Source: Anaerolineae bacterium (lineage in GTDB: Bacteria > Chloroflexota > Anaerolineae > Epilineales > JAHCIE01). Taken from it: a stretch of 64,000 nt of DNA. Under the pieces are notes generated by a model. It searched no databases and was not told the DNA's origin. It saw only the letters and a program-made list of their open reading frames with translations. This document shows, in pieces, positions 13,723 to 45,297 of the stretch; position 1 is the stretch's first letter; each line of letters begins with the position of its first letter. The stretch covers positions 9,559 to 73,558 of the forward strand of contig JAXLWL010000004.1 in assembly GCA_046328505.1 (NCBI GenBank), in the 5' to 3' direction. The position numbers and the translations under genes were made by a program.

Positions 13723-14178
13723 TTGAAGGTTCACATGCTCCCTCGATTCATATTGCCGCTAGTCCTCCTGGCGATTCTCCTGTCAGCCACGCTCAGTGCC
13801 TGCCGTGTCGCTCCTTTACCCGAAGGTGTCACATTCACACAGGTCATGGAAGGCAAGGACCTGTACGAGGCCAATTGTGCAGCCTGTCATGGTCCAGCTG
13901 GTGAAGGGCAAGATTGGCGCACTCCCGTGCCCGCCGGTCTTCTGCCAGCCCCGCCCCACAATAACGAGGGCCACACCTGGCATCATCCGGACCAGCAGCT
14001 TCTCGAGATCGTTCGGGACGGCGGCAAGACGCAAGGCAGCACAATGCCTGCGTTCAAGGATCGCCTGACCGACGCGCAGATGAAGGCGATTCTAGCCTAC
14101 ATCAAGACACTCTGGGGGCCTGAGGAACGAGCACGACAGGCAGAGCTGACACGTCTCAACATGAGCGACCACAAGTAG
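13723..14178 (+). CDS. class I c-type cytochrome (single CxxCH), secreted lipoprotein
   Basis: Signal peptide/lipobox (LSAC). Heme-binding motif NCAACHG. Met ligand region GSTMPAF. Confidence 0.75.
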   Translation: MKVHMLPRFILPLVLLAILLSATLSACRVAPLPEGVTFTQVMEGKDLYEANCAACHGPAGEGQDWRTPVPAGLLPAPPHNNEGHTWHHPDQQLLEIVRDGGKTQGSTMPAFKDRLTDAQMKAILAYIKTLWGPEERARQAELTRLNMSDHK

Positions 14179-14283
14179 CGAGTAATGGTTACCCAGTTCT
14201 TCGTACTCCTGGTTCCGCAGGCGTTAGACCCGCTGGTGCATCTACCAAAGATGTCGAAGCCACTATTTCCCTTAGTACTCTGT

Positions 14284-16371
14284 TCACTTATGGCGAAGCA
14301 AACGGGCCGAATTGCCAAGGATGCCAAGATCGGGTAGAGATTGCGCGGCAGCCGCCAGAATAGGTGGCAGAATACCAATTGCAGCCAGCGATAGCCCCAC
14401 GAGATTGTAGCCAGCGGTGAACCCGATGTTCATCTTCACAACCCGCATTGTCCGTTTGGCAATCTTGAACAGTTCGGGCACCAGCGTCCAATCTTCGCGC
14501 ATCAGAGCAACATGCGCTGCCTCGATCGCCACATCCGTCCCGGCTGCTCCCATAGCGATTCCTACGTCAGCCTGGGCCAAGGCGGGCGCATCATTCACGC
14601 CATCTCCTACCATCACGACGACGTGTCCCTGAGCCTGATACTTCTTCACCACAGCGATCTTCTGTTCTGGCAGCAGGTTGGCGCGGTACGCTACATGGAG
14701 CGCGTCGGCAAGGGCTGCGGCCGTTCGTTCGTTGTCCCCGGTCAGGAGTTCAATGTGCTCAATCCCAAGAGCACGAACGGATGCCAGCGCCTCGGGCACT
14801 TCCGGGCGCAGGGTGTCAGCAGCCGCGAGGATGCCTGCCGGTTCGCCATTTTGGGCCACGAACAAGAGAGTCTTGCCTTGTGCCTGTAGTTCATCGGCGA
14901 TAGAGGGTACTTCAAGCATTGGAAGCATTCGGCGGCTACCGATGGTCACGAGGTTGCCGTTTACCCGTGCCTGCACTCCCATGCCAGGAACAGATTCAAA
15001 GTCCTCCGGCTCGAGCGAAGACAGTCCGCGCTCTCGCGCAGCCGCGCGTGCAGCTTCAGCGAGTGGATGCTCTGAGTAGCGCTCGGCAGATGCAGCAAGC
15101 GTCAAGAGGTCATTCTCGGAGAGGCCGTTGAGAGGGACGACGTTGGTGATCTGCGGACGGCCAAGCGTCAGTGTGCCTGTCTTGTCTACGAGAAGCACAT
15201 CAGCACGGGCAAGCAACTCCAGGTACTTCCCACCTTTGATAAGGAGCCCTCGTTTGGCTCCCGCCCCAATGGAAGCCAGCATAGCAATCGGCGTTGCGAG
15301 AGCAAAGGAGCAGGAGCAAGCCACAACCAACACCGCGGTGGTCGCGAGAGGGTCGCGGCGAACCAGAAAGGTGAGTGTCGCGATGCTTGCGACCACCGGT
15401 AGGTAGTAGGCAGAGAACTTGTCACCGATGCGTTGGATGTCGGCCTTATGCGCTTCGGCTTCCTCTACCAGCTTAATCACGCGACCAAAAGTCGTATCAG
15501 GGCCGATATGGGTCGCACGAATGCGCACACTCCCTAGCCGGGCAATCGTCGCCGCAAACACGCTTGCCCCTGGCCCGACCTCCACGGGCATCGCTTCGCC
15601 GGTGATAGTTGCCTGGTCCACTGTGGCCTGACCGCTGACGACCTCGCCATCCACCGGAATCTTGTCGCCGGGCCGGATCACAACGATCTCACCCACGCGT
15701 ACTTCGCTGGCCGGGACTTCATACTCCTCGCCGTCCCGTTCAACCCGCGCTGTCTGTGGGGCCAGTGCGGTCAGGTCTTTCACAGCACGTCGCGCGCGCT
15801 CCGTGGTGAAGTGCTCCGCGTAGTCACCCACACGCATGAAGAAGACGACGACGGCCGCTGTTGCCCATTGGCCAACGATTAAGGCAGCGACCGCGCCCAC
15901 ACTCATCAACGTGTGGGAAGTGATCTCTCTCTTCAAGGCGGAGCGGATGACGTTGCGAAAGATGGGGTAGCCAAACACGAGGACAATGCCCACACCGACA
16001 AACCAGGGGACACGTGCGGTGAGCGCTTCGAAAAGGCCTAGCCACTCGCCTACAACCACGACAAACAGCACGACGCCAAAGACGATCCCAAACAAAGTCA
16101 GGACCTGTCGGGTCAAGCCAGCCAGGGGAGCGGTAGATCGCTGCTCGTTGTCCGACTGAGGGACCGCGTATCCTGCACCCTCGACCGCCTTGCAGACGGA
16201 CGCCAAGTCCACTTGTGCTGGATCGAGCTGGATCACAGCTTTCTCTGCTGTCAGTGAGACATCTACCGCATGGACACCGGGGAGGGCCGATATGGCGCGC
16301 TGGACGCTCTTGGTGCATTCCACGCAGTCCATGCCGCGAATGGGAACCTCCAAGGTGTTGAGGCTGGCCAT
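14284..16371 (-). CDS. heavy-metal translocating P1B-type ATPase (N-terminal HMA domain; TM6 motif reads CSC instead of CPC)
   Basis: HMA domain GMDCVEC. DKTGTLT phosphorylation motif, GDGVNDAP, TGE motif. TM6 VVACSCSFALATP (15310-15318 encodes CSC). Start at MASLNT (16371), directly after the arsR stop. Confidence 0.85.
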   Translation of the reverse strand: MASLNTLEVPIRGMDCVECTKSVQRAISALPGVHAVDVSLTAEKAVIQLDPAQVDLASVCKAVEGAGYAVPQSDNEQRSTAPLAGLTRQVLTLFGIVFGVVLFVVVVGEWLGLFEALTARVPWFVGVGIVLVFGYPIFRNVIRSALKREITSHTLMSVGAVAALIVGQWATAAVVVFFMRVGDYAEHFTTERARRAVKDLTALAPQTARVERDGEEYEVPASEVRVGEIVVIRPGDKIPVDGEVVSGQATVDQATITGEAMPVEVGPGASVFAATIARLGSVRIRATHIGPDTTFGRVIKLVEEAEAHKADIQRIGDKFSAYYLPVVASIATLTFLVRRDPLATTAVLVVACSCSFALATPIAMLASIGAGAKRGLLIKGGKYLELLARADVLLVDKTGTLTLGRPQITNVVPLNGLSENDLLTLAASAERYSEHPLAEAARAAARERGLSSLEPEDFESVPGMGVQARVNGNLVTIGSRRMLPMLEVPSIADELQAQGKTLLFVAQNGEPAGILAAADTLRPEVPEALASVRALGIEHIELLTGDNERTAAALADALHVAYRANLLPEQKIAVVKKYQAQGHVVVMVGDGVNDAPALAQADVGIAMGAAGTDVAIEAAHVALMREDWTLVPELFKIAKRTMRVVKMNIGFTAGYNLVGLSLAAIGILPPILAAAAQSLPDLGILGNSARLLRHK

Positions 16372-16373
16372 GC

Positions 16374-16718
16374 TCAATCTTCCCTTTCGACGTTGTAGCG
16401 CGTGCATTGGTACACACCTTGCGCTACATCAGCCAACAGTTCTTCGGCCAGGCAGAGCAGTTGGCCGACGCGCTCGTCACTGAGACGATAGTACACATGG
16501 CGCCCCCGCTTCTCGCGCGTGACGAGGCCACAGTCATTCAAGCAAGAGAGATGATTGGAGACATTGGGCTGCGTCAGCCCAGTGACCGCAATGACTTCCG
16601 TGACACTACGCGGCCCATCTCGAAGGGCCTCAAGGACGGCGAGACGGGAGGAATCTGAAAAGCCTCGAAAGAGCTTGGCCTTCAACTGGGTCGCTTGGGC
16701 ATGTGCGGCAATTAGCAT
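16374..16718 (-). CDS. ArsR/SmtB-family metalloregulatory repressor
   Basis: HTH LAVLEALRDGPRSVTEVIAVTGLTQPNVSNHLSCLNDCGLVTREKRGRHVYYRL with candidate metal-site Cys/His. Start at MLIAAHAQ. Immediately upstream of, and co-oriented with, the ATPase. Confidence 0.8.
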   Translation of the reverse strand: MLIAAHAQATQLKAKLFRGFSDSSRLAVLEALRDGPRSVTEVIAVTGLTQPNVSNHLSCLNDCGLVTREKRGRHVYYRLSDERVGQLLCLAEELLADVAQGVYQCTRYNVERED

Positions 16719-16741
16719 AGGCTCGTCCTGGGTATATTTGT

Positions 16742-16788
16742 ATATCACTATGTGCTGATATATTATTGTGATTGCTGCGATTTGTCAA
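16742..16788 (-). promoter_or_regulatory. arsR promoter (TTGACA-17-TAATAT) with an overlapping ATATCA-N8-TGATAT palindrome, a candidate ArsR operator, in the divergent arsR/CDF intergenic region
   Basis: Minus-strand -35 at 16783-16788 and -10 at 16760-16765. The perfect 6-bp-arm inverted repeat at 16742-16761 overlaps the -10 and the predicted transcription start. Confidence 0.5.
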
Positions 16789-16851
16789 GACATGGTAAGC
16801 AAGCACCAGTTGCCAAAGACCGGACCAAGAAGCGGGGAGGAGTAGGGCGAG

Positions 16852-17754
16852 ATGGCGCATACTCACGAGCACGGGCCAGCGAATTACGGCCGAGCGTTTG
16901 CCATTGGCGTGGCTTTGAATCTCGGCTTTGTCATCATAGAGGGCGGCTACGGCTATGTGTCTAACTCGCTCGCCCTCGTCGCGGATGCCGGGCATAACCT
17001 AAGCGATGTTCTTGCCCTTCTATTGGCCTGGGGAGCGAGTGTTCTCGTTTTGCGCCTTCCGACCGTCAAGCATACGTACGGGATGCGGAGCACCTCTATT
17101 CTTGCTGCTCTTGTCAACGCAATGTTACTTCTCATTGCCATTTCGGCAATTGTGTGGGAAGCTCTCCAACGGCTGATGAACCCCGCGCCAGTCGAGGCTG
17201 AGACAGTTATCTGGGTCGCTGTCGTGGGCATTGTCGTCAACACCGTGACCGCGCTGCTGTTCATGTCCGGCCGCCAGCACGACCTTAACATCCGAGGCGC
17301 CTTCATGCACATGGCGGCTGATGCGGCCGTTTCGGCGGGCGTCGTTCTAGCCGGCTTCGCGATTATAGTAACTGGTTGGGAATGGCTTGATCCGGTGGTG
17401 AGTCTGCTCATCGCAGCAGTGATCTTCGTAGGAACCTGGGGGCTGCTCAAAGAGAGCATCAATATGGCGCTTGACGCGGTACCGGAAGGTATTGACCTTA
17501 GTGAGGTCAAGAGTTACCTCGAAGGGCTACCGGGTGTGATCGAAGTTCACGATCTCCATATCTGGCCCATGAGTACAACTGAAACTGCCTTGACAACTCA
17601 TCTTGTTATACCGGACCACAGGGCCGATGATGCGCTATTGAACGAAGTGCTAGAAACACTCCACGACAGGTTTGGCATCGAGCACACCACGATACAGATT
17701 GAAGCAGGCAATACGGCGCATCCGTGTAAACAAGCCCCGGCTCATACTGTTTGA
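16852..17754 (+). CDS. czcD: cation diffusion facilitator (CDF) family divalent metal exporter
   Basis: Six TM helices, conserved HNLSDVLALLLAW, and a C-terminal cytoplasmic domain. Divergent from arsR. Confidence 0.8.
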   Translation: MAHTHEHGPANYGRAFAIGVALNLGFVIIEGGYGYVSNSLALVADAGHNLSDVLALLLAWGASVLVLRLPTVKHTYGMRSTSILAALVNAMLLLIAISAIVWEALQRLMNPAPVEAETVIWVAVVGIVVNTVTALLFMSGRQHDLNIRGAFMHMAADAAVSAGVVLAGFAIIVTGWEWLDPVVSLLIAAVIFVGTWGLLKESINMALDAVPEGIDLSEVKSYLEGLPGVIEVHDLHIWPMSTTETALTTHLVIPDHRADDALLNEVLETLHDRFGIEHTTIQIEAGNTAHPCKQAPAHTV

Positions 17755-17882
17755 GAGACTTCGTGGAGCACAAGAAAGGAACCCGGCAGCGCAGGTACCG
17801 AGTTCCCGTAGTTCTCGTATGCCTTCTCCTCTTTCTCAGCCTCCACACCGCTTAATGTACCGAGTGCAGGTGCATTCTTACC

Positions 17883-18557
17883 TCACCCCGGATACCACTT
17901 GTTGCGCCATTCGCGCATTTGGCTGATTTCCCGTTCCTGCGCGGCGATGATGTCGGCCGCTAGCTGCCTGATCTCGGGCTTCGTCGCCCGTTGCTGAGCG
18001 ATCTTTGCCGCCTCAATAGCGCTCTCGTGATGCGGGATCATCGTATCGATGAAGGCCTTGTCGAAGGGGGACGCTGTTTGGAGCTTCTGGACGTCCTCCG
18101 CCATGTTGCCCATGTCGCTCTTCATTTCGGGTAGCATCGGCATGCTCGCCATGGCCGGCGTCTGGTCCGAACCGTACCATGCCTTACGCCAGGATTTCAT
18201 CTGCTGAACTTCCTTGTCCTGGCTACTGACGATAGCGTCGGCGAGTTGACGGATCTCGGAGTGTTCGGCGCGAGATTGAGCCACCTTAGCCATGGCGACG
18301 GCGCCCTCATGGTGCGGCACCATCATGTCGATGAACTGCTGGTCGAACGGCGCCTTTGGATCGGTTGTTGAATGCCCTGCCAACGCGTGGTTCATCCCCA
18401 TCCCTGTAGAGGATTGAGGTGGGCTTTGCATAGGCTGGCTTTGTTGCTGACCCTGTGTCTGTGGGCTACAGGCGATGACGCTGAAGCCTAGCAGGAGGCC
18501 AGCGACCAGGGCAGGAAAGTGGCGTCGAAGGTTCTGCATTACGGAGAGTCCTTTCAA
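17883..18557 (-). CDS. DUF305-family lipoprotein, Met-rich
   Basis: Lipobox VIACSPQ. DUF305 half-domains DQQFIDMMVPHHEGAVAMA and DKAFIDTMIPHHESAIEAA, each ending ...WYG. Confidence 0.8.
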   Translation of the reverse strand: MKGLSVMQNLRRHFPALVAGLLLGFSVIACSPQTQGQQQSQPMQSPPQSSTGMGMNHALAGHSTTDPKAPFDQQFIDMMVPHHEGAVAMAKVAQSRAEHSEIRQLADAIVSSQDKEVQQMKSWRKAWYGSDQTPAMASMPMLPEMKSDMGNMAEDVQKLQTASPFDKAFIDTMIPHHESAIEAAKIAQQRATKPEIRQLAADIIAAQEREISQMREWRNKWYPG

Positions 18558-22040: not shown

Positions 22041-22724
22041 TTGGCTAGCTCGCCTCTTACCCCTAGTCGTGCCCTGCGCCGACCCCGCCGCATTGACATG
22101 CGCATCGTCGTCGGCGTCCTCCTCATGCTTGCCACCACCCTCGGCTCCCTCGCCTTCTGGACGGCCATCTCGGATGCCCGTCCCGTCGTGGTGGCGACCC
22201 ACGACCTGCCGGCCCTCGCCGTGCTCACCCCGTCCGACCTCACCGTCGCCCACGTCCGCATGGACGATACCCTCTACCAGGCTGCCATCCCTGGCGACGA
22301 TCTCAACACTCTCGTGGGTAAGCCCCTGTCCCAGCCGGTCTATGCCCAGGAGGTGCTGGTGCGCCCCCACATCGCGCCGCGTCCGGCCCTCGCCGCCGAC
22401 CAGGTCGCCATGACCATCGCCATCACGCCTGAGACAGGCGTCGGCGGACGGCTGCGGCCCGGCGACCAGGTGCAGGTGCTCGTCACCCTCAACAAGGGCA
22501 AGCCTGACGTGCGCTCGGCGGTCGTCCTCGACCGCGTCACCGTCTACGATGTCGGCTACGAGCAGCGAGTCGGCGCCATCAACACCGACAGCATCACCGG
22601 CAGCGGGGCGCAAGGCACGGCCCGGTGGCTGACACTGGCGGTGACCGCCGAGCAGTCGCGCCAGTTGGCCGAGGCGAAGGGCAGCGGCGACCTGGATGTG
22701 ACGCTGCTCCCGCCTCGGCGATAG
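22041..22724 (+). CDS. cpaB: Flp pilus assembly protein CpaB/RcpC (SAF domain)
   Basis: N-terminal TM helix. SAF-like region (TPSDLTVAHVRMDD...GKPLSQPVYAQEVL). First gene of the tad operon. Confidence 0.75.
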   Translation: MASSPLTPSRALRRPRRIDMRIVVGVLLMLATTLGSLAFWTAISDARPVVVATHDLPALAVLTPSDLTVAHVRMDDTLYQAAIPGDDLNTLVGKPLSQPVYAQEVLVRPHIAPRPALAADQVAMTIAITPETGVGGRLRPGDQVQVLVTLNKGKPDVRSAVVLDRVTVYDVGYEQRVGAINTDSITGSGAQGTARWLTLAVTAEQSRQLAEAKGSGDLDVTLLPPRR

Positions 22725-22734: not shown

Positions 22735-24162
22735 ATGAGCCAGTCCAATCCTGCGCAGCCTCAGCGGCTGCCCGATCCTCTCGACGCGCGCTGGCGCCTG
22801 GCCGTTGGGCTCGGCGACCCCGACCGTGAGCGCGCCCTGCTGCCGGCCCTCCGCGCCCTCGGCGACTTCGTCGTCGTCGAGCGCTGCCTGGCGGCCGACC
22901 AGCTGCTCGCCTGCCTCCAGGGGCGGCGCGCGGATGCGGCGATCCTGGCCTTCGACCTTCACCGGCTCAGCCAGGGCGTCATCGCCGACCTGCGCCAGAC
23001 GCGTGTCCCCCTCGTGACCCTGGCGCCCGACCCGAACCAGGAGCGGTGGCGCTCGCTCCCCGGCGTCGTCCTTCCCCTGGACGCCGACGCGGCGATGCTG
23101 GAGCGCGCCCTCACGGCAGCGCTGCGCGGCGAACGCCCACCGCCCGCCGAGCAAGACGAGCCGCTCACTCTGTCGCCGACGCAAGAGGCCCGGTCCCAGG
23201 CGCCGCCCGCCCTCTCTCTCATCGCCCTCGCCGGCGGCTACGGCAGTCCAGGGCGCACGACCCTCGCCCTCAACCTGGCGGCCGCCCTCGGCGCGGTCGC
23301 CCCCACGGTCCTGGTGGACGCCGACCTCAACAACCCCAGCCTGGCCATCCACCTCGACGCCGATCCCACTCGTAACCTCTCCATGCTGGCCCACGCGGAG
23401 CCCGACACGCCCCGCGCCTGGCGGCATGCCCTCGACGGGGAAACCCAGCCCCTAGCGGCCCGCAGCCCCCACGCGGTTGTCCTGTGCGGCCTGCCCAAGC
23501 CTGAGCTGCGCAGCCAGCTCACGCTGCCCTTCTTCGAGCGCCTGCTGGAGCATCTCCGCCTCCGCTATCGGTACGTCATTCTCGACGTCGGCGCGGAGGT
23601 ACACGGTTCCGAGTCCGCCCTGCACCGCGCCGCCCTGCAGCTGGCCGACCACACCCTCGTCATCGTCGCCGCCGACCTGGTCGGGCTGCGCCAGGGCCAG
23701 CGCGCCTTGACCTACCTGACCGACACCCTCGGGTTGCCCCACGAGCGTGTCGCCATCATCCTCAACCGCCACGACCGCCACCGCCATCACAGCCGGCCGG
23801 AGATCGAGTGGGCGCTCGACCGGCCAGTGGCCGGCGTCATTCCCTACGACCACGCCGCCGTGCAGCGCGCCCTTGACCGCCAGCAGCCCTTGCTTCTGGC
23901 CGGGAAGAGCCGCGCCGGCCGCGCCATCCTCGACCTGGCCGAACGCCTCCACGCCGGCCAGGTTGTCCTGCCCCCCGAAGCGCCTTCGAAGCGCCGCTTC
24001 CCCTGGCGACTCAACATTAAGAAGTCCAAGACCGGGCAGACGACGCCCGTTGAAGGAGACTTGCATGGCCACGTCCCTATCCCAGATGAGCCCCTGGCCG
24101 AGGGGCAGCTACGATCCAACGGTCGAGCGCGCCCTCCGCGCCGAGGTCCGCGAGGCCGTTAG
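22735..24162 (+). CDS. cpaE: Flp pilus assembly protein CpaE/TadZ (receiver-like N-domain plus ParA/MinD-type ATPase)
   Basis: Deviant Walker A IALAGGYGSPGRTTLALNLAAAL. Followed by the CpaF gene. Confidence 0.8.
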   Translation: MSQSNPAQPQRLPDPLDARWRLAVGLGDPDRERALLPALRALGDFVVVERCLAADQLLACLQGRRADAAILAFDLHRLSQGVIADLRQTRVPLVTLAPDPNQERWRSLPGVVLPLDADAAMLERALTAALRGERPPPAEQDEPLTLSPTQEARSQAPPALSLIALAGGYGSPGRTTLALNLAAALGAVAPTVLVDADLNNPSLAIHLDADPTRNLSMLAHAEPDTPRAWRHALDGETQPLAARSPHAVVLCGLPKPELRSQLTLPFFERLLEHLRLRYRYVILDVGAEVHGSESALHRAALQLADHTLVIVAADLVGLRQGQRALTYLTDTLGLPHERVAIILNRHDRHRHHSRPEIEWALDRPVAGVIPYDHAAVQRALDRQQPLLLAGKSRAGRAILDLAERLHAGQVVLPPEAPSKRRFPWRLNIKKSKTGQTTPVEGDLHGHVPIPDEPLAEGQLRSNGRARPPRRGPRGR

Positions 24163-25393
24163 CCGCCTGCTCAGTGACACGCAGTGGCTGACGCCCAGCG
24201 CCGCCGACGAGGCGCGCATCCGCGCCCTCATCCACGAGCACGTCGTCGCCTACCAGCGCCGCGCCGCTACGGCTAACACCGGCCCTCCTCTTCAACCCCG
24301 AGGCGGTCGAGCAGCATCTCTTCGATGGCCTGCTGCGCATGGGCATCCTCCAGCCGCTCATGGACGCGCCGAGCGTCGAGGAGATCATCTGCAACGGCCC
24401 GCAGCGCATCTTCGTCATCGAGGACGGGCAGAAGCGTCTCATGAGCGACCTGTTCTTCGACGACGACGAGGAGCTGCGGCAGCTCGTCAAGCGCCTGGTC
24501 GGGCCCCTGGGCCGCCGCCTGGACGAGTCCGCTCATGGTGGATGCGAGGCTGCTCAACGGGGCGCGGCTCAACGCCGCCATCCCGCCGGGCGACGACCCG
24601 CTGGTGCTGCCTCACCATCCGCAAGTTCACCTTGCGCGCCCACTCCCTGGAGCAGCTCGTCGAGTTGCGAACGCTGCCCGAGCACGGCGGCGCAGTTCCT
24701 GGACGCCGCGGTGCAGGCGGGCGTCAACATCCTCGTCAGCGGAGCAACCGGCGCCGGCAAAACGACGATGCTCAACGCGCTGGGCGCCTCCATCGCGTCG
24801 CTGGACGAGCGCGTCGTGACGATTGAGGAAGTGGCTGAATTGCAGCTCGACCGCCAGCTCCCCGACTGCGTCTCTCTACAGGCGCGAGCGCGAGCAACGT
24901 CGAAGGCGTGGGCGAGATCCGCATCCGTGACCTGGTCAAGAACGCCCTGCGTATGCGGCCGACGCGGATCATCGTCGGGGGAGTGCGCGGCGCGGAGGCG
25001 CTGGACATGCTGCTGGCCATGAACACCGGCCACGAAGGCTCCCTCGCCACCATCCATGGCAACTCGCCCCGCGACGCCCTGGACCGGCTGGTGACCCTGG
25101 CGATGATGGCTGAGGAGCGGCTGTCCAACGAGGCCCTCACGAAGATGGTGGCGCGCACCATTGAGCTGGTGCTCCAGGTGCGCTTCGAGCCGCGGACGGG
25201 CCAGCGGCGGCTGGTGAGCATCTTCGAGGTGACGGGGCTGGAAGGCGAGGTGATCACCGGCAACGACATCTGGGCGCTGGACGAGAAGAGCGGCCGCCTC
25301 GTCTGGACCGGCATCCAGCCGCGCTGCCTGACCAAGCTGGCCGCGCGGGGTATCCCGTATACCTTCGCGCCGACGCGCGGGCCGTCCGACTGA
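24065..25393 (+). pseudogene. cpaF: cpaF/tadA (Flp pilus assembly ATPase, VirB11/GspE family) disrupted by about five +/-1 frameshifts
   Basis: CpaF-like sequence is readable only by switching frames near 24270, 24530, 24605, 24680 and 24885. Examples: MATSLSQ...EARIRALIHEHVVAYQRRAA / LFNPEAVEQHLFDGLLRMGILQPLMDAPSVEEIICNGPQRIFV / MVDARLLNGARLNAAIPPGDDPLVL / TIRKFTLRAHSLEQLVELRTLPEH / [33 protein letters not shown]...[10 protein letters not shown] / [52 protein letters not shown]. Walker A and the His box are present but lie in different frames. Confidence 0.75.
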
Positions 25394-25730
25394 CACTTTC
25401 CTGCTACTTTCCCGGTTGCGTGTCCAGGAAAGTGGCAGGAAAGTCAGGAAAGCCCGCATTGGAGCCTCACTTTCCCGGCAGCGCGTCCAGGAAAGTGGCG
25501 GGAAAGCCGGAGAAACACACCTTGGAGCATCACTTTCCCGGCAGCGGGTCCGGGAAAGTGATGGGAAAGCAGGAAAAGCACGCGTTGGAGCTCCACTTTC
25601 CCGGCAGCGGGTCCGGGAAAGTGGCAGGAAAGTCGGGGCAGAGCAGTTTGCCGTCGATGCAACCGCCAAGTTCGCTCCACTTTCCCAACTCGTGGTCCGG
25701 GAAAGTGGCAGGAAAGCGCCGGGAAAGTGG
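25394..25730. repeat. five tandem copies (period 63 bp, one of 84) of a unit containing an 11-bp-arm palindrome CACTTTCCCGG-N8-CCGGGAAAGTG
   Basis: Palindromic cores at about 25405-25432 (variant), 25468-25497, 25531-25560, 25594-25623 and 25678-25707, with an extra half-site GGGAAAGTGG at 25721-25730. Each core is followed by a conserved GCAGGAAAG..TTGGAGC segment. Intergenic between cpaF and tadB. Confidence 0.85.
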
Positions 25731-25766: not shown

Positions 25767-26624
25767 ATGATACCAATTCTACTCTCAGTTGGTTTAGGGT
25801 TGGCCGTCTTCTTCGTCTACGACGGGCTGACGCGCCCACCTACGCCCCAGGTGGAGACGCGAGAACGAACGCGGCTCGACGGGTTCCTGCTGCGGGCCGG
25901 TCTGCCGGATGTCAAGCCCCGCGAGTTCGCCTTGTTCTCTCTGGCCTGCAGCTTGGCCACCGCCATCGTCAGCCAGATCCTCCTGGGCTGGGGCATCGTC
26001 AGCCTGCTGGCCCTCCTGTTCGGCCTGGCGGCGCCCCTCGCCTACTACGCCCACCGCCACGATAGCCGCCGCGCTCAGGTCCAGGCCGCCCTGGTCGAGG
26101 CCATCGCCCAGCTCCGCGATGCCATCCGCAGCGGCCTCTCGGTTCAGGAGGCGCTGGTCGGTCTGGCGCGCGTCGGGCCAGAGGCGCTGCGGCCTGAGTT
26201 CGTCACGCTCGTCCGGGATATGCAACTCGACGGTGGTGAAGCGGGGCTGGTCGCCATGCGCGACCGCCTCGCCGACCCGCTGTTCGACATCGTCGCCGCC
26301 ACCCTCATCCTCAACGACCGGCTCGGTGGCCGCAACGTCAGCCAGGTGCTCGACGAGCTGGCCGAGACGACGCGGGCGCAGCTGCGCGTCCAGGATGAGC
26401 TGCGCGCTCACCAGGCTCAGACAGTGCTGTCCGCCCGAGTTGTGGCCGTCATGCCCCTGATCGTGCTGATCATCATTCGCCAGATGAACCCGCGCTACCT
26501 GGCCATCTTCAACGACTGGTCGGGCCAGGTCATCCTAGCGCTGTGCGTCCTGAGCATCGCCATCGGCTACGGGGCCATGCTCTGGATCACGCGCCTGCCG
26601 GCCGAGCGCCGCATCTTGAGGTGA
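25767..26624 (+). CDS. tadB: Flp pilus assembly inner-membrane protein TadB (T2SS-F domain)
   Basis: 285 aa with an N-terminal TM segment, a cytoplasmic helical domain and C-terminal TM segments. Position and architecture fit TadB. Confidence 0.75.
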   Translation: MIPILLSVGLGLAVFFVYDGLTRPPTPQVETRERTRLDGFLLRAGLPDVKPREFALFSLACSLATAIVSQILLGWGIVSLLALLFGLAAPLAYYAHRHDSRRAQVQAALVEAIAQLRDAIRSGLSVQEALVGLARVGPEALRPEFVTLVRDMQLDGGEAGLVAMRDRLADPLFDIVAATLILNDRLGGRNVSQVLDELAETTRAQLRVQDELRAHQAQTVLSARVVAVMPLIVLIIIRQMNPRYLAIFNDWSGQVILALCVLSIAIGYGAMLWITRLPAERRILR

Positions 26625-26628
26625 CGCC

Positions 26629-27603
26629 ATGCCTTTCCATTTCCACCTGTCGAGTCCGCCCGTCGCCGTCATTCTCTTGCCCCTCCTCTTCAGCCTGGGC
26701 GCCTACCTCATCCTCATGGCGCAGCCCATCGGTCGGCCGCGGCCTGACTTGAAAGAACGCCTGCGCCGCCTGGACGTGGACGAGAGGATGCGCGAGCAGA
26801 TGAGCCAGCCCATCCGCCGCCCCATCTTCGCCTCGCGCTGGCTGGAGGCCATCCTGCGACCTATCCTCGACGACGTCGGGCGGCTCGTGCGCTCGGTGCT
26901 GAGCCTATTCGGGCTCGGCGGCGGACGCCGGTTGGAGCGCAAGCTGCACATCGCGCGGCCCGAGGTCGAGATCTCCCAGTTCTTCGGCGAGAAGCTCGCC
27001 GCCGGGCTGATCGGCCTGGCGATCTTCCCGGTCATGAATGCCCTGGGCCTCCAGCCGTTCGGGACGTGGCCGACCTGGCTGTGGGGTGTCGGCTTCCTGG
27101 TCGGCTTTCTCAGCCCCGATTGGGACCTGGAGCGGCGGCTGGCCGAGCGGCGCATCGACGTCCTGATGGAGTTGCCGACCGTGCTGGACATGCTCACCAT
27201 CGCGACATCGGCAGGGCTGGCCCTGGAGCAAGCCCTCATCCTCGTCGCGCGGGAGAGCCAGGGCCTCGTCGCCCAGGAGCTGCAGCACGTAGTGCGCGAG
27301 ATGGCGCTGGGTCAGCGTTCCCTCGACGGCGCCCTGTCCGACATGGCCGAACGCAACGATGTGCCGCAACTGACGACCTTCGCCAACCACGTGCGCGCCG
27401 CCTACCAGCAGGGGACGCCTCTCATCCAGACACTGCGAACCCAGGCGGTGAGCCTGCGGGAGCAGAAGCGACTGCGGATTGTGGAAGAAGGGGGGAAGGC
27501 GAGTGTCAGGATGCTCTTCCCCGTGGCCCTCTTCATATTACCGGTCCTCTTCGTCGTACTCCTGCTGCCGGCGGTCTTCGAGCTGCTCAAGCTCGGGCGA
27601 TAG
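26629..27603 (+). CDS. tadC: Flp pilus assembly inner-membrane protein TadC (T2SS-F domain)
   Basis: 324 aa paralogous architecture immediately after tadB. Confidence 0.75.
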   Translation: MPFHFHLSSPPVAVILLPLLFSLGAYLILMAQPIGRPRPDLKERLRRLDVDERMREQMSQPIRRPIFASRWLEAILRPILDDVGRLVRSVLSLFGLGGGRRLERKLHIARPEVEISQFFGEKLAAGLIGLAIFPVMNALGLQPFGTWPTWLWGVGFLVGFLSPDWDLERRLAERRIDVLMELPTVLDMLTIATSAGLALEQALILVARESQGLVAQELQHVVREMALGQRSLDGALSDMAERNDVPQLTTFANHVRAAYQQGTPLIQTLRTQAVSLREQKRLRIVEEGGKASVRMLFPVALFILPVLFVVLLLPAVFELLKLGR

Positions 27604-27635: not shown

Positions 27636-27857
27636 ATGCTGTTCATTGTGTCGTTGTATCTGAGTTGGCTGCATAGCTATTTTCACAGGCTCGTCCTGCG
27701 CGTCTGGCGCGACGAGGAAGGGGCGTCGCTGGTGGAGTACGCCATCCTGGTGGCGCTCATCGCCATCGTCGCCATTGCTGCCGTCCAGGCCCTCGGCAAC
27801 GGGATCACCGGCGTCTTCCAGAACATCCTGGGGCGCATTCAAGGCCTGGGACGGTAG
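27636..27857 (+). CDS. flp: Flp/Fap-family type IVb pilin precursor
   Basis: ATG at 27636 with AAGGAGG 8 nt upstream. 73 aa MLFIVSLYL...EEGASLVEYAILVALIAIVAIAAVQALGNGI carries the Flp processing/hydrophobic motif (G-x4-EY). Hidden inside the spurious ORF 27066..27857. Confidence 0.75.
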   Translation: MLFIVSLYLSWLHSYFHRLVLRVWRDEEGASLVEYAILVALIAIVAIAAVQALGNGITGVFQNILGRIQGLGR

Positions 27858-27860: not shown

Positions 27861-28289
27861 TTGGAGACTGGAAGCGTGTCGTCCTTGTATGCATCTGTTG
27901 TGGCCGTCGGCATCTTCGCAGCTGCCACGGTCACCGACATCCGCTCGCGTCGCGTGCCGCGCTGGCTCACGCTTGGCGGCATCCTACTCGGCCTGGCAGT
28001 CGCCGCCATGAGCGGGTCGGAGGCCCTACTTGCTAGCCTCGCTGGCCTGGTCGTCGGCGGGGTACTTCTGCTCCCCTTTGTCCTCAAAGGCGGGATGGGT
28101 CTGGCGGATGCGCTCCTGCTAGCAGCCGGTGGGGCGTGGCTGGGCTGGCAGCCCATTCTCCATGTCGCGCTGTGGGGCGCGCTGGCCGGTGGCATCCTGG
28201 CCCTCGTGGCGCTGGCCCGCGGGCAGCGCTCCCTTCCCTACGCGCCGGCCCTGCTCGTCGGCGTCCTACTGGCGTTGGCGGTACGATAG
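27861..28289 (+). CDS. cpaA: prepilin peptidase (A24 family, CpaA/TadV-like)
   Basis: 142 aa polytopic membrane protein with conserved Asp residues (ATVTDIRSRRVP...LGMGLADALLLAAGGAWLG). Confidence 0.7.
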   Translation: METGSVSSLYASVVAVGIFAAATVTDIRSRRVPRWLTLGGILLGLAVAAMSGSEALLASLAGLVVGGVLLLPFVLKGGMGLADALLLAAGGAWLGWQPILHVALWGALAGGILALVALARGQRSLPYAPALLVGVLLALAVR

Positions 28290-28302
28290 GAAGGTCGCCG
28301 TC

Positions 28303-28725
28303 ATGAACAGGCTCGAACGCTGGCTTGAATTTCATCAACGGTTGGAGATCGGCGCGGCGATGGTCGAAACAGCGGTTGCCTTTCCCCTGCTCATTATCGT
28401 CGCGCTGGGTCTCGTTCAGTTCGCCCTGTACGCCCACGCCCAGAACGTGGTTGTCGGCGCAGCCCAGGATGGAGCTCGCGTGGCGGCTGCCGAGGACCGC
28501 CACATCGAGGACGGGCTTGCTCGCGCCCACGACCTGCTACGGGCCGGACTCGGGCCGAGCGCCGAGGGGGTGAGCGTGCGCGGCGTGGACGGCGGGGACG
28601 TCGTGATGGTCGAGACGCAAGGCCGGCTGCGGCTTATCCTCCCGTGGGTGGGTGACGCCTCGCTGCCGCTCCACGCGCAGGCTATGATAAACAAGGAGGC
28701 GTTTCATGCTAGCCCGTCGCGCTAA
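28303..28725 (+). CDS. TadE-like pseudopilin
   Basis: Start refined to MNRLERW.... TadE N-terminal motif ERWLEFHQRLEIGAAMVETAVAFPLLIIVALGLVQF. Confidence 0.6.
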   Translation: MNRLERWLEFHQRLEIGAAMVETAVAFPLLIIVALGLVQFALYAHAQNVVVGAAQDGARVAAAEDRHIEDGLARAHDLLRAGLGPSAEGVSVRGVDGGDVVMVETQGRLRLILPWVGDASLPLHAQAMINKEAFHASPSR

Positions 28726-29155
28726 GTCCGCACGCTCCTGCGAGCGCGCTTCGGCGCTCGTCGAGGTTGCCCTCGTCTTGCCCCTGCTGCTTGTGCTCGC
28801 CTTCGGTGTCGTGGGTGTGAGCCGTGTCGTCCAGGCGCGGATGGGCGTGAGCGCCGTGGTGCGTGAGGCCGCTCGATCGGGCGCACTGGCGCAGGAGCCA
28901 GGCGAAGCCGTCGCCCGAGGGCTTTCGGTGGGACATGCGGTCGCCGAGGGGTATGGTCTGACCAACGGCTCGTTGGCGCTGGGTGTAGACGCAGGAGGTT
29001 TCGGGCCTGGTGGGAGTGTGCGGGCGAGTGCGGGTTACACAATATCGCTGGGCGATCTTCCGCTCCTTAGTTGGGCCAGCGTGAATGTGGCGAGCGAGCA
29101 CGTCGAGCGTGTGGACCTCTACCGCTCGCGGTGGACATCTGGAGGGAGGCCATGA
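28706..29155 (+). CDS. TadE-like pseudopilin
   Basis: RSCERASALVEVALVLPLLLVLAFGVV matches the TadE N-terminal motif. Confidence 0.6.
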   Translation: MLARRAKSARSCERASALVEVALVLPLLLVLAFGVVGVSRVVQARMGVSAVVREAARSGALAQEPGEAVARGLSVGHAVAEGYGLTNGSLALGVDAGGFGPGGSVRASAGYTISLGDLPLLSWASVNVASEHVERVDLYRSRWTSGGRP

Positions 29156-29619
29156 GGCGGTTGACAACGACACCGCTGAGAAGGCTTGACTTCCTGCTGG
29201 CTCGCGATGCCGGCCAGGCAATTGTGTGGGTCGCGGTGATGCTGCCGCTGTTCCTGGCGGTGATTGGCCTATCCATCGACGGCGGGTTGGTCTTCAGCGC
29301 CCGCCGCGAGTTGCAGAATGTCGCCGATGCGGCAGCTCGCGCCGGGGCGATGCAGATTGACGAGCGGGTCTACCGCGAGAGCTTCGGGCAGCGCGTCGTT
29401 CTCGATCCAGGCGCAGCGCAGGCAGCCGCCGTTGATTACATCGGGATGCAGCCAGGTCATCCCTCGGCATCCGTCAGCGCCGGCCCACAAGGGGTGCGGG
29501 TCGACACGGCGCGCGACGTGCCGACGAGCTTCTTGAGGCTCGTCGGGATTGAGACGGCGCGGGTGACGGCCACGGCCATCGCCGAGGTGCGCCACGGCAT
29601 TGAGCGGGGGGAACGGTAG
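29152..29619 (+). CDS. TadG-like (Tad_N domain) pilus assembly protein
   Basis: Start refined to MRRLTTT..., with GGAGGGAGG RBS. ARDAGQAIVWVAVMLPLFLAVIGLSIDGGLVFSARRELQNVADAAARAG matches the TadG N-terminal domain. Confidence 0.55.
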   Translation: MRRLTTTPLRRLDFLLARDAGQAIVWVAVMLPLFLAVIGLSIDGGLVFSARRELQNVADAAARAGAMQIDERVYRESFGQRVVLDPGAAQAAAVDYIGMQPGHPSASVSAGPQGVRVDTARDVPTSFLRLVGIETARVTATAIAEVRHGIERGER

Positions 29620-30309: not shown

Positions 30310-31408
30310 GCATCTCTTTCCATCACTGGTTCTCGCTTTGCTCGTAACCGCTTTTCTTTCTACCTCCGTTCATGCCGACGGGCCAAACCCCGACCGGCCG
30401 CAGCCGCATGTCAATCGCGATCATCTGAACGTTCAGACCCGTGTCGAGAGCCGCCGCGACGGAGTCTATGTTGAGATTTCCGTCCAACAGTCAACGCCAG
30501 GGGAAGACCGGCCGAGTCCGCATGCGCGTGCTACCGATGAACCCTCGAACAACACTGCATCTGCAACGACTGCTACAAGTTCGGCTCAGCCGGTGAGCAC
30601 GGGACCGCAGGAGCGCTACTGGAGCAACAACACCGGGATCTACCGCGAGACGGTAGACGGTCACGTAATCCAGCTCACGCCGCCACCTATTGGCACAGCC
30701 AGCCTGAGCGCCTGGGACACCGCGCGGGCTAACCACCCCGACCAGACGCCGTATCTCCTGTACGTGGACGACCAGTACAACGGCGTCGTCTGGATCCCCC
30801 AGTCGCCCCAGAACGGCAACGTTCGCATCGAGGCGATGCCCTCCGCCCAGCCCTCGCGTCCCTCAGGTGATGACAACAGCACGGACGCGCGCGAAGTCGC
30901 CCTCAGCGCCCTGGGCCACGTGCGCCTCCCCGACATGCACGTCCGCGTGAACCCGTCCCTTGGCCTCGTCAACCTGCCGGGCTGGTTTTGGGTCGACGGC
31001 TACGACGGTCGCCCCTTCGGCGTCAGCCGCACCGTCCATGTCCCGCCCGAGATTGGCGACGATGTCCCCGATACCGTCGTCCCTGCCGACGACCCCCGTC
31101 GGCGCGGCACGAGTTTCACCGTCAGCGTGCGGATCTGGCCGAGCCAGTATGAGTGGAACTTCGGCGACGATCACATCCTGGTGACCGACTCCCTGGGCAA
31201 GCCCCACCCTGCCGAGTCCGACATCCAGCATACCTACGAGACCTCTTCCCTGGGTTTTGCCAACGGCTTCCCCGTTCGGCTGAGCGTCACCTTCCACGCC
31301 GAGTACCGCGTCAACGGTGGCCCGGCTGAGGCGCTGCCCTCGATCACCCAGGTGGTCGAGTACGGCTACCGCGTGCAGGAAGCGCAATCGGTTCTCACCG
31401 GTCATTGA
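30302..31408 (+). CDS. secreted hypothetical protein (tad-locus accessory)
   Basis: Signal peptide [25 protein letters not shown]. No recognisable domain. Confidence 0.45.
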
Positions 31409-31428
31409 GTGGGAGCGAGGAGGAAGTC

Positions 31429-34400
31429 ATGCAGACGACCTACGTAGACATGGACGAGCAGCGGCGCGACCGTGTGAGCCTCCTGGGGCTGATTGTCGGC
31501 CTGGTGGGCGTGGGCGTCTTCCTCTATAAGGTGCCCGGCCCGCCCCACTTGCCCGCGACGTGGCCGACGTGGGCTGGCATCGTCACGACCCTGCAGGGCA
31601 GCTATCTCCCCCTGGATGGCGTCATCTACGTGCTCATGATGCTCGCCTGGCTGCTCTGGGCCTGGCTGGCTTTCTCGCTTGTCCTGGAGCTGATTGTCGT
31701 AACCGTCGAGAAAGTCTCACAGGGCGCGGCGTGGGCGCGAAGCCTACGCGCTGCGGCTGACCATGTCACAGCGCCCATCGTGCGCCGCGTGGTGCAGGGC
31801 GCCGTCGTGGCAACCGTCGTGGTCAACCTCGTGGGCCGGTCGGGGACGCCGGCGAACGCCGCACCTATGGAGACAACCCCGATTGTGCTCCAGCAGCGGG
31901 CGCCAACAGATGCTGCGCCTCCGGTGGTCGAGCAAGAGGCCGAGCACAATCCGCGCGTCGTCGAGTACACGGTGCAGTCGGGCGACAGCCTGTGGGCCAT
32001 CGCCGAGCGCTTCTACGGCGACGGCGACGCCTATCCCCGCGTCGTCGCGGCCAACGTCGGCCGCGCCATGCCGAACAATGGGCGCTTCACGCCGGCCGGC
32101 GTCATCCACCCTGGCTGGGTGCTGGTCATCCCGCTCCCCGACGAGGCGCCGGCCGAGCACAGGCAGCGGACCACCTACGTCGTGGCAAAAGGGGATACAT
32201 TGTGGGGCATTGCCGGGAGGTTCTTGGGCGACCCGACCCGCTGGCCGGAAATCTTCGAGCTGAACCGCGGCGTTGCCCGCCATCCCCAGACGGGCTGGAC
32301 GCTCACGAACCCTAACCTCATCTGGCCGGGCCTGCCCCTCCAGATACCTGTCGAGGCGCCATCTGAGCAGCCCGCGCCCCTGCCCCCGGCTCCTGTTGTC
32401 GAGCATCCAGTGGAGACCTCGCCAGTTCCCGGCCTCCAACCTGGTACGATTACAACGGCAACGCCTCGGCCCGCAGAGCCTAAGCAAGTCGTCGTCGAAA
32501 CGCCCGTGGCAACACCGGTTCCCGTCGCCACGCCCTCGCCGGTCGTGCACGAGCAGGCTCTACCGCCTATAGTGTGGGGGGCAGTGGGGCTGATGGTCGC
32601 CGCCGGCATCGCTGGCCTGGCCTTGCGGCGTCGGGTGCGGCGCAGCGTGGCCGAGTCGCTGGCCCCCGACCCGGCGGAGGTCATGCCGCCCCACGGCGAC
32701 TTCGTCGACGCCGAGTTCGCGCGCCTGCTGCGCCACCGGCTGCAGAATGGCGAGGTCGAGGCGGCCGTTCTGGTTGCCGAGCAGACGCTGCGCTTCCTAC
32801 GCGATGAGGGCATAGAGGGAGTCTCCCTCATCATGGCCGGCCAGGGCGCCAAGTCAGTCAACCTGATTCTGTCCACGAGCTTACAAGACAAGGAGCGTAT
32901 TATCGCCTTGGCGCCTAAGATGGGCGCGCGCCTCGGCGGAACGGTCAAGGCGGAGACGACGTGCGACGACGATATCGCCCTCGAGGTATCGGAGCCCAAG
33001 CTCGCCGATGTCGCGTCTGCCTCTAAGCGCGCCCACGAGTTGCCCCGCCTTGTCGCCGTCGGGCTCTTGCCTCAGCAGACCACAACCTACATCAACTGGC
33101 CGAAGGCGGGTCATGTCCTTATCGCGGGGACCCCAGGCGGCGGGACGGACATAACGCTCACTAGCCTCATGTGCGCGTTGGCGACCCGCTATCACCCGGA
33201 CGCTCTCCGGCTGTACACCGTTGCCAGCCGCCGCGCCCTGCCACACCAGCTGTTCGATCTGCCACACGGGGTTGAGATCGCCGATTCGTCCGACGCAAGA
33301 GGCGTGCAGGGAATCCTGGAGCAGGTGGAGGCCGAGCTTGTTCGACGCATGAAAGCCGCCGCCGAAGGAGAAGCGACCCGGGAGCCAGAGATTGTGATTG
33401 TGCTGGGCGAGCTCGCCGACGTAGAGGACATTGCAGCGGTGGACATGATCGGAACGCACGGCACGGCGCATGGTATCCAGCTTCTTGCCGCCACAAGCCG
33501 CGTGGACGAGATCCCCGACGGGACGTTGGCGCTCTTCTCCACGCCGCTGGTTCTGCGACTACTCGACGACGAGACCAGCATTCGCGTCTTGGACGACAGC
33601 GCTGCCGCCGACCTGGGGCGCGGTGACATGTTCCTGTCCCTGGACAGCCGCTGGCCGATCCAGATGCGCGGCCTGCGCGTCTCACCGGAGCACCTGGATC
33701 AGCTGGTTACAGTGATGCGTGAGGCCTATGGGGAGCCGACACCGGCCCCATCCCTGGCAACCGCCGACGAGAACGACGCCGAGATAGTTGCCGACGGCGA
33801 GGAGCTTTCCGTGCAGTCGCCGAACGGGCACGCGCCAGCGGCTGTACCGGCCAAACCAGTCGAGGCTAAGCCCGACCTTCCGGTGGACGCGAGCGCAGCG
33901 GAAAACGACCTTGTTGAGCCTGTCACACTAGCGCTCCCGGCGCTTAACGGCCACACGCCACCGATACCCCTGCCGAGCGACGCCTCAGACGCGCCGCCTG
34001 AGGTCGACGGGGTTGAGGAGGAGCCGCCGGTGTTCATCCAGTGCTTCGGCAGCCTGGTCGTCCGATACGCGGGGAAGACCCTGCAGGCCAGGGCAGAAGG
34101 GCGCGCCATCCTCAAGTCGTGGGAGGTGATCGCCTACTTGGCGTGCTATCCACCCGAGGGCGTGACCGTGGATCGGCTAATCGCCGATGTCTGGCCCGAC
34201 ACTGACGGCGCTGACAAGAACGTGCTGCACATCGCGATGTACCGAGCACGCAAGGCACTGCAAGAGCAAGTCGAGAGTGTCAGCGACGACGTCATTCGCC
34301 TGGACCGCGATGGGACGTGTCTCCTCGACCGCGCGTTGGCCACGTCGGATGTCCACCAGTTCATGGCGCTCGTCTCGCGGGCACAAAGGCTTCCGTCTGC

Positions 34401-34854
34401 CCAAGCCAGGGCCGCATTGGAAAGAGCGCGGGACCTGTACCAGGGGGACCTGCTCTCCAGCCCTCAGGCGCGAACGTTCCACTGGCTTGACAATCGCGGG
34501 GCGAGCGGGTTGACGCTTCGCGAGACCTACCGCATCGAGTACCAGCGAGCCATGTGCCAGTTGGCGGGGCTCTACCGCGAAGACGGCGAGTTCCAGCGGG
34601 CTCAGGCGCTGCTGAAGGGCATGCTGCAGCAGGAGCCAACGCTCGAAGATGTCGTGCGCGAGCTGTATCGTCTCTACGCGCAGATGGGCGACCTGGCCGG
34701 GTTACGGCGGGAAGACCGTCGCCTGCGTCTGGCGCTGCAGTCCGCCTACTACGACCCGAACAACCCCGACGACGACCCCGGCCTCTACTCGCCCGAAGCC
34801 GAGACCGTCGCGCTATATAATGAGATACACAGGGCCCTGAACCCGATAAGCTAG
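31429..34854 (+). CDS. giant multidomain protein: N-terminal TM helices, two LysM domains, Pro-rich linker, TM helix, FtsK/SpoIIIE-like P-loop domain with degenerate Walker A, C-terminal BTAD (SARP-type transcriptional activator) domain
   Basis: LysM domains [20 protein letters not shown]... and [20 protein letters not shown].... FtsK-like [27 protein letters not shown] (no Walker Lys) and [12 protein letters not shown] (Walker B-like). BTAD-like [25 protein letters not shown]...[10 protein letters not shown]. Start at the ATG at 31429 with GAGGAGGA upstream. Confidence 0.6.
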
Positions 34855-35024
34855 GCCAATCCTGCCGTCCCACAACCTTCTATTCCTGTCCCCGCCCAAG
34901 CGGCTATGCTACTCGTGCATAACCGCTTGGTTGACTGTGTGACGTACCAGCCTATAATCAGCGGGTAGTGAGGGATGACCCGCTGACGGGTCTGTCTGAG
35001 CGTTGAGTGGCGGGGGGAAGGCGT

Positions 35025-38000: not shown

Positions 38001-38063
38001 AGGTATAGTCCCTTCTATGGAGGCAACGATCAGGGGTTTCGGGTCGTATTTTCCAATCTCTGA
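35025..38063 (+). CDS. STAND NTPase: N-terminal ~145-aa helical domain, G/N-rich strand motif, NACHT domain, C-terminal FGE-sulfatase (SUMF1-like) domain
   Basis: Walker A LVIVGDPGAGKTTFLKHL, Walker B LVMFDGLDEV. FGE-sulfatase signature RYPVTVAQFEAYV...LPSEAEWEKAARG...SPYGIEEMAGNVWEWT...VVRGGAF...GFRVV. Shared motif VQGNGNVVAAGNISDSVINSGRVEA at 35448-35531. Confidence 0.85.
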   Translation: MDLEGWKQATRERLHGMAEILRRKTPGAVYGGLSAAAILPIISALNQGDLMAVLAFGSLLGSVGAGLITNQIQAWKDKSDTELAEELTQKAETDAKWREALDKLMQELETPRLAQETLAPGGRAWLAEALNQELTRLGSSVRVQGNGNVVAAGNISDSVINSGRVEAREGSVVIIAQQVSRDIVASLKPEGLSASELQAITEPYLKYLITRYRYLDFKGMGMADRVPLRLPIEDMYIPLRARVEIPRWERSGWQDFEALSDREAQLLGSLETPEESRYTTERFGGSPWLLDLLGRHDGLVIVGDPGAGKTTFLKHLTLSLALGHGERVGLANRLPVLVPLSAYARALELEDVALQEFLGTYYRNQGTDLSIDALLAAALSDGRALVMFDGLDEVQEITRRGLVLERVTAFYALHRQRGNKFILTSRIVGYKDVRLTAEGLEECTLVDFDERDIREFINKWTCAVEQAIHGPSAFSLRQAEIEGNELLDAIARNPGVRQLAANPLLLTILALMKRQGVALPERRVELYDKYVETLLRHWNLARGLDRRAARDLDVVETLRVIAPLALWMQATSPGRGLVKQADLQRQLIAIYSERGEADPERAARQFQHDVRDHAGLLLERGPREYGFIHLTFQEYLAAVAIAQHGQVDVAPVVRTLAAHMDDASWREAVLLTIGYLGLIQQRDEAAGDVLQQLVASPEASPAAVVLAGEAAVDAGPGGVSVSGRQAVAGALLAVMRDDEHADALTRAAAGDALAKLGDPRFRANAWFLPDEPLLGFVKIPSGGLTMVEGSTENVVDVPTFFIGRYPVTVAQFEAYVDASGQTPVNKQSLRDPVNRPVRYISWSEAMNYCRWLAGTLRVWADTPQPLADWLRGTGERPPGRITLPSEAEWEKAARGTAEHTYPWGEQPNPNRANYRDTKIGDTSSVGCFPSGASPYGIEEMAGNVWEWTRSILKNYPYDPKDGREDEAIEGNRVVRGGAFIDNATSLRCSFRGRYSPFYGGNDQGFRVVFSNL

Positions 38064-38256
38064 CTCCTTTGAGGGGTTGAGGGCAGGCAGGTGAAACCCC
38101 CTCCTGCAGAGGGGGCCGGGTGAAGACCCTAACCCACCCAGTAGCAGAAGACCCCCACCCAGCCTCTCCCAGAGGGAGAGGCGCCTGACTTGTTCCCCTC
38201 AAACGCAGATGGCGAGGCCGGCAGAAGTTGACTTGGCCGGCCAAGGATGACAGACG

Positions 38257-45186: not shown

Positions 45187-45297
45187 CTCTCTTCCCTAAC
45201 AGCTGCATGTTTCTTGACAGAGCGTAACCGTCTCCCACCCTCAGCGTTCTAATTAGTACACCTTGTGGACAGCAATGCGGCTGGAGGGAGAGAGGGA

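Follow-up and report, generated by a model that had tools for sequence, protein, structure and literature searches.

Five frameshifts in the tad pilus ATPase gene cpaF of an Anaerolineae metagenome contig: a probable local consensus artefact

We examined a stretch of 64,000 nucleotides (nt) from an Anaerolineae metagenome-assembled genome (MAG; GCA_046328505.1, contig JAXLWL010000004.1), hereafter the window, in which the gene for the Flp pilus motor ATPase, cpaF, is broken by five frameshifts inside an otherwise intact tad operon. From comparison of the sequence with that of its relatives we infer that these frameshifts are probably a local consensus or assembly artefact, and that in the organism cpaF would be the intact CpaF/TadA motor ATPase gene of a Chloroflexi tad (Flp pilus) operon of the usual kind. 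The initial annotation of the window had offered two explanations, a recently inactivated ATPase or locally low-quality assembly, and these are the two that survive our analysis, with the evidence leaning to assembly.

Anatomy of the disrupted cpaF

Three-frame translation of positions 23745-25400 revealed one CpaF coding sequence distributed across all three forward frames and, consistent with this, a tblastn search of the window with an intact orthologue returned three high-scoring segment pairs in differing frames (E ~1e-115). The claim that cpaF can be read only by changing frame five times, at about 24270, 24530, 24605, 24680 and 24885, was thus borne out, each of these sites lying within ~20 nt of an exact break. 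We used a three-way alignment of the window with two relatives, L001 and L005. The first, L001 (also L007), is the 2,710-bp contig JAXLWK010000002.1 of MAG STL-CHL21 (GCA_046328525.1) and carries P0001, an intact CpaF of 441 amino acids (aa), whereas L005 belongs to a contig of 110 kb in GCA_039810265.1 and has its cpaF at L005:9824-11149. In both relatives cpaF runs uninterrupted for 441 codons. The segments and breaks of the window copy are as follows.

24065-24283, + strand: segment 1, offset 0 (the ATG frame), the N-terminal 73 codons, MATSLSQ...RRAATANTG; equal to P0001 except for H16Y
24284, + strand: frameshift 1, insertion of a C; the window reads GGCCCT, both L001 and L005 read GGCCT
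24285-24530, + strand: segment 2, offset +1, LLFNPEAV...GRRLDES
24530-24533, + strand: frameshift 2, a complex event with 2 nt missing at 24530/31 and a C>T next to them; the window reads GAGTCCGCTCATG, both L001 and L005 read GAGTCCTCGCCCATG
24532-24588, + strand: segment 3, offset +2, LMVDARLLNGARLNAAIPP; P>L at two positions that are invariant among the orthologues compared
24589, + strand: frameshift 3, insertion of a G; the window reads CCGGGC, both L001 and L005 read CCGGC
24590-24682, + strand: segment 4, offset 0, ATTRWCCLTIRKF...LPE
24683-24684, + strand: frameshift 4, a complex event of +1 nt in which T becomes CA; GAGCACGG in the window, GAGTCGG in L001 and L005
24684-24887, + strand: segment 5, offset +1, with Walker A (VSGATGAGKTT) and the Asp-box region
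24888-24889, + strand: frameshift 5, an extra GC that makes a perfect tandem GCGCGA GCGCGA; L001 has GCGCGAGCGA
24890-25393, + strand: segment 6, offset 0, running to the stop codon, with Walker B and the His box

The five indels sum to +3 nt, which places the last segment in the ATG frame again. Stitched across the breaks, CpaF is 440 aa long, is 98% identical to P0001 (its best match) and hits the T2SSE family (PF00437) with E = 1.4e-43. Two hallmarks of CpaF/TadA proteins are present, namely Walker A (SGATGAGKTT, segment 5) and the His box (segment 6), and in place of a continuous open reading frame (ORF) of ~440 codons there are six frame segments. Translation from the ATG meets a TGA at 24824-26 after 253 aa, with Walker A left out of the translated product. 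Judged on its sequence, cpaF as deposited is unable to yield a working ATPase. The frameshifts stand in the public NCBI record of this 836,658-bp MAG contig, where 24866-25393 is annotated, with a CTG start and without a pseudogene flag, as a 175-aa protein (MFN8473862.1; P0121). This protein exactly matches the C-terminal segment of the window copy, IVGGVRG included, and is found in the 90% cluster of P0001. The CpaE of the window likewise has a match of 100% identity on the 836-kb contig.

The net +3 nt and the common frame of the first and last segments are what would be expected if programmed recoding, by ribosomal frameshifting or transcriptional slippage, restored full-length CpaF. However, a net multiple of three arises by chance in one case in three, and all five shifts, which are of unequal size (+1, -2, +1, +1, +2), would be required. 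Furthermore, no slippery heptamer or A/T run occurs at any of the five sites and all orthologues are single-frame there, none of them having any of the shifts. Recoding has next to no probability in our view and we rejected it on these grounds.

Two further changes in the window have the appearance of bases displaced between neighbouring positions.

24981-24982, + strand: Walker B change, GGGGAGG > GGGGGAG, giving E305G; resembles one base moved between two G runs
23796-23799, + strand: cpaE change, CCGCGCCG > CCGGCCGG, three changes in 4 nt, equivalent to -1/+1; in frame (A>P) and seen only in the window

The first of these replaces the Walker B glutamate. Position E305 of the window CpaF aligns with E357 of Caulobacter crescentus CpaF, and the window reads IVGGVRG where five of the five orthologues compared, as well as the solved CpaF, read IVGEVRG. 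In C. crescentus CpaF, E357 belongs to the catalytic Mg/water site and the E357A variant is non-functional (PMC11300603). Among solved structures that protein (PDB 8RKD, 8RJF, 9E24) comes closest to the intact orthologue (E = 1.7e-77, residues 78-403), and Walker A, the Asp box, the Walker B context RIIVGEVRG and the His box all align. The window copy differs from it in having five frameshifts and a Gly for the Walker B Glu, and in belonging to a Chloroflexi (Anaerolineae) MAG. P0001 and the L005 cpaF, unlike the window copy, have the Walker B Glu and no interruption of frame. The cpaE site has a feature of its own: CCGGCCGG at 23796-23799 is a perfect palindrome, where both relatives have CCGCGCCG, and the change shares its shifted-base character with that at 24981-82.

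Relatives, mutation pattern and the origin of the frameshifts

All five indels occur in the window only and in none of the relatives compared. L001 and L005 have many differences from each other, yet they agree against the window at every one of the five indels and, in addition, at 24981-82 and 23796-99. The cpaF genes of these two relatives are 93-95% identical to the window copy at the DNA level and lie in a shared gene order, with flanks that are partly 100% identical. L001 covers exactly 22802-25401; it matches the window at 100% identity over its left 610 nt, and beyond them identity is 84-98% per 100-nt interval. The gene order of L005 is that of the window from the metal-resistance genes through the complete tad operon, and the last 363 nt of its cpaF stretch, which reach into the spacer downstream, match the window at 100% identity. 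The initial annotation had named, as a pointer to assembly error, an orthologous strain in which the gene is intact between identical flanks. Part of this was found, in that L001 and L005 are both intact with one flank each at 100%, but no single relative has both flanks identical.

Nor did any independent sequence carry one of the five indels in our protein, genome and metagenome comparisons. Exact-protein look-ups for TadB, CpaE, TadC, a 368-aa ORF, a 161-aa C-terminal cpaF fragment and a 227-aa internal ORF found none on record. Two scans of JGI metagenomes, with patterns that allowed sites 2 and 3 to be either shifted or intact, gave no match, and a scan of species-representative genomes matched the relatives and not the window's genome.

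The comparison further showed that the window is a mosaic. It equals L001 at 22802-23411, is nearest to L005 at 23500-24100 and 24700-24900, and equals L005 at 25038-25400, its own variants sitting between the L001-like left and L005-like right blocks. L001 itself looks like an alternative-haplotype contig. Mosaicism at 22802-25401 would point either to frequent recombination or to a chimeric MAG consensus. The latter would be a special case of artefact, in which the contig switches among two or three strain haplotypes and frameshifts arise at or near the joins, and the identity pattern, L001-like on the left and L005-like in parts and at the right end, is in its favour. We nevertheless consider a chimera very unlikely, as at least 17 window-specific synonymous changes at 24110-25015 (24160T, 24181G, 24268T, 24274T, 24437T, 24543T, 24719G and 24928T being examples of such changes) indicate a third real haplotype rather than a mix of the two known ones, and the indels lie away from the visible switch points. 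Among the three related genomes, mosaicism is strong, with identity switching between 100% and 84-93% from block to block within the 2.6 kb of 22802-25401. Along the locus, the synonymous divergence (dS) from L005 ranges from 0.004 to ~1.0.

The damage is confined to cpaF. A greedy ORF map covered the window without unexplained gaps. Neither this map nor Pfam analysis of neighbouring ORFs that overlap on one strand revealed a further split gene in the window, the pairs checked being separate complete genes. In a 20-kb alignment with L005, the non-triplet coding gaps outside cpaF were all locally compensated and well-separated uncompensated gaps were seen in cpaF only. Logan assemblies of SRR26348419/20/23 contain contigs of 4-7 kb at 14103-18189 and 48262-55308, ~11 kb in all, which match the window at 99.97-100% identity with no gaps. 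The neighbouring tad genes, described as intact in the initial annotation, are so, as are all other window genes checked. A frame plot of GC content at third codon positions (GC3) was also tried as a window-wide frameshift detector and was of little use, GC3 being uneven across the window.

Under uniform random error, the probability of five frameshifts in one 1.3-kb gene is ~3e-7. Uniform error cannot account for them, and the cause is therefore local. Random error had already been thought unlikely as the sole explanation, which holds for error distributed uniformly but does not extend to a locally caused consensus error.

To describe the mutation pattern, changes in cpaF were assigned to branches using L001, L005 and four outgroups.

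Window branch: 18 synonymous, 6 non-synonymous, 5 indels
L001 branch: 55 synonymous, 5 non-synonymous, 0 indels
L005 branch: 26 synonymous, 2 non-synonymous, 0 indels

Indels are significantly enriched on the window branch (5 indels versus 24 substitutions, against 0 versus 88 on the sister branches; Fisher p = 7e-4), and the ratio of non-synonymous to synonymous changes (N/S) is raised there as well (6/18 versus 7/81; p = 0.03). The pairwise ratio of non-synonymous to synonymous divergence (dN/dS) of the stitched cpaF is still 0.04-0.06. The synonymous states of the window are often common to outgroups and look like natural polymorphism, whereas its non-synonymous changes and indels are in no relative. 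Several of the non-synonymous changes hit residues that are invariant in the orthologues compared (P>L twice, R>H and E305G).

A real and fairly recent pseudogene, in which inactivation of cpaF was followed by more indels and by damaging substitutions, one of which removed the Walker B Glu, would fit part of this pattern. The frameshifts stand in the deposited record and are limited to one gene, N/S is raised on the window branch, invariant residues are hit, among them the equivalent of E357, and GC>AT transitions account for four of the non-synonymous changes. Moreover, the ~11 kb elsewhere in the window that can be compared with independent k-mer assemblies agrees with them with zero indels. 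Ordinary multi-frameshift bacterial pseudogenes are similar in that one gene is disrupted against intact orthologues and the branch N/S is raised. The Flp pilus would then not be assembled unless another ATPase substitutes, which is conceivable since the relatives UBA6077 and TGS_CHL1 have two cpaF loci, and the loss might be neutral or might be selected, for example because it lets the cell evade phages that depend on the pilus.

We regard a pseudogene as the less likely reading, however, on account of its spectrum and surroundings. Taking the excess of ~4-5 non-synonymous changes as the neutral phase gives ~6 substitutions and 5 indels, a ratio near 1:1. In bacterial mutation-accumulation studies the ratio of indels to substitutions is roughly 1:5 to 1:10, and the probability of the observed ratio against this range is 0.003-0.05. 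Bacterial pseudogenes are said to have a deletional bias, a view associated with Mira et al. 2001 and Kuo & Ochman 2009. The window copy has four insertions against a single deletion (P ~0.03 against such a bias). On small counts, this spectrum, with indels nearly as numerous as substitutions and insertions outnumbering deletions, is not the one typical of bacteria. Of the seven indel-type events, four are complex or look like bases shifted between adjacent runs (24530-33, 24683-84, 24981-82 and 23796-99), and two events are 2>3 homopolymer extensions. The dN/dS of 0.04-0.06 and the absence of the indels from the independent sequences compared speak against a pseudogene too. Finally, the other ~6 kb of tad genes, which are functionally dependent neighbours of cpaF and are untouched, contain zero frameshifts and have dN/dS of 0.02-0.2; a neutral period as long as that of cpaF should have left ~18 frameshifts in them (P ~1e-8). 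Were the frameshifts real, the most they would suggest is a disrupted cpaF allele, without the Walker B Glu, in an otherwise conserved tad operon under purifying selection, with the ATPase supplied from elsewhere or a dead allele recently recombined in, perhaps selected by pilus-dependent phages; we consider this combination unlikely.

The local consensus artefact that we favour could have arisen as follows. Co-occurring strains differ by 7-16% here, and the assembler or polisher may thus have been left without a clean consensus. The five frameshifts would be consensus errors within ~1 kb of a metagenome-assembled contig, and the shifted-base changes at 24981-82 and 23796-99, along with the few odd amino-acid changes, would be consensus errors too. 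A plausible local cause of this kind is offered by L001, a variant contig on exactly this stretch with an identical 610-nt anchor, whose MAG, STL-CHL21, has the same naming scheme as the window's MAG and accessions close to it. Polishing is known to fail locally where a strain mixture is left unresolved. Short-read (Logan) contigs are present for the flanks and none was on record for the tad-region genes tried, a pattern that would be the expected product of a strain-fragmented de Bruijn graph, and the passage of an 836-kb MAG contig through this stretch suggests long reads. Frameshift errors of long-read or hybrid metagenome assemblies, a known class of artefact, resemble those of the window in being indel-dominated, in homopolymer extensions and shifted bases, and in falling in a strain-variable stretch of a very long MAG contig with clean, polished flanks. 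They are usually scattered over many genes, whereas those of the window are confined to one.

Several observations weigh against this explanation. The confinement of the damage to one gene is exactly as a pseudogene predicts, and GC>AT transitions, as usual in spontaneous mutation, make up four of the six non-synonymous changes. Other strain-variable stretches with dS of 0.4-1.0 against L005 (the P-type ATPase gene, ORFs of 226 and 368 aa and the FtsK-like gene) are intact, and strain variation is therefore not always error-causing here. A contig built from accurate short reads only would normally make such indels real. The spectrum statistics involve small counts and indel:substitution ratios taken from other bacteria. 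Likewise, that none of the five tad-region genes and two cpaF fragments tried was on record is weak evidence, the index being one without the window's own assembly.

Neither outcome would be out of the ordinary: gene and operon are both known, as are the artefact and the process that could have disrupted the gene. The main value of the finding is as a quality flag, as inferring from this MAG that the Flp pilus is not functional would probably mislead. If the frameshifts are real, they add another case of a strain that has lost its pilus motor, with an interest confined to local ecology.

The tad operon

A standard tad (Flp pilus) operon, delineated by Pfam, spans 22.0-29.6 kb on the + strand of this GC-rich window, with ~70% GC around the cpaF locus. 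Its genes are listed below.

22041-22724, + strand: rcpC/cpaB, 227 aa, intact by Pfam and by comparison with a relative
22735-24162, + strand: cpaE, 475 aa, intact; overlap with the start of cpaF, also seen in relatives
24065-25393, + strand: cpaF, six frame segments with five breaks
25767-26624, + strand: tadB, 285 aa, intact
26629-27603, + strand: tadC, 324 aa, intact
27636-27857, + strand: flp pilin gene, 73 aa, intact
27861-28289, + strand: prepilin peptidase (A24) gene, intact
28129-29619, + strand: three TadE/TadG-like pseudopilin genes, intact

Thus cpaF lies between cpaE and tadB/tadC, and RcpC, CpaE, TadB, TadC, Flp, the A24 peptidase and the TadE/TadG-like proteins are intact, with lengths equal to those in a relative. 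The C. crescentus operon is alike in having cpaB/rcpC, cpaE, tadB, tadC, flp and a prepilin peptidase gene. No second cpaF was found in the 64-kb window by tblastn with an intact orthologue, and no secretin gene was noticed in the tad locus. Directly 3' of the tad genes, 31405-34854 (+ strand) encodes a 1,149-aa protein with LysM repeats, an FtsK/SpoIIIE ATPase, a Trans_reg_C/BTAD region and TPR. This protein is kept in L005 (1,144 aa), and its architecture is unusual beside a tad locus.

Other features of the window

At 14103-18189 there is a heavy-metal resistance block comprising an HMA P-type ATPase, an ArsR-type regulator, a CDF transporter and a DUF305 protein. The block recurs at 99.4-100% identity in contigs from other samples (ENA ERZ27282907, Logan SRR26348419/20 and SRR31893881), is nearly identical in L005 and is probably a recently spread mobile block. 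Near-identity of the window and L005 at 14-18 kb was considered as a clonal-frame clock and dropped, because this heavy-metal island is near-identical in many unrelated samples.

Downstream of the tad region, 35007-41439 (+ strand) encodes two tandem proteins of ~1,000 aa, each with a NACHT NTPase and a C-terminal FGE-sulfatase (SUMF1-like) domain. These are followed by an NB-ARC+TPR protein (42991-45186) and then by an SNF2 helicase with a NOV_C domain (45265-48900), and the NACHT/NB-ARC/SNF2 stretch from 35007 onwards looks like a defence island.

On the - strand, 48983-53375 carries genes for a thymidylate synthase (345 aa), a 580-aa Thymidylate_kin + HMUDK_hel protein, a 266-aa protein without assignment, a Peptidase_M78 protein (290 aa) and a small HTH protein, and this cassette is also found at L002-L004. 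It resembles phage-type thymidine hypermodification genes beside an ImmA/IrrE-like protease and repressor pair, and the 7 kb that contain it are 99.97-100% identical in three Logan run assemblies.

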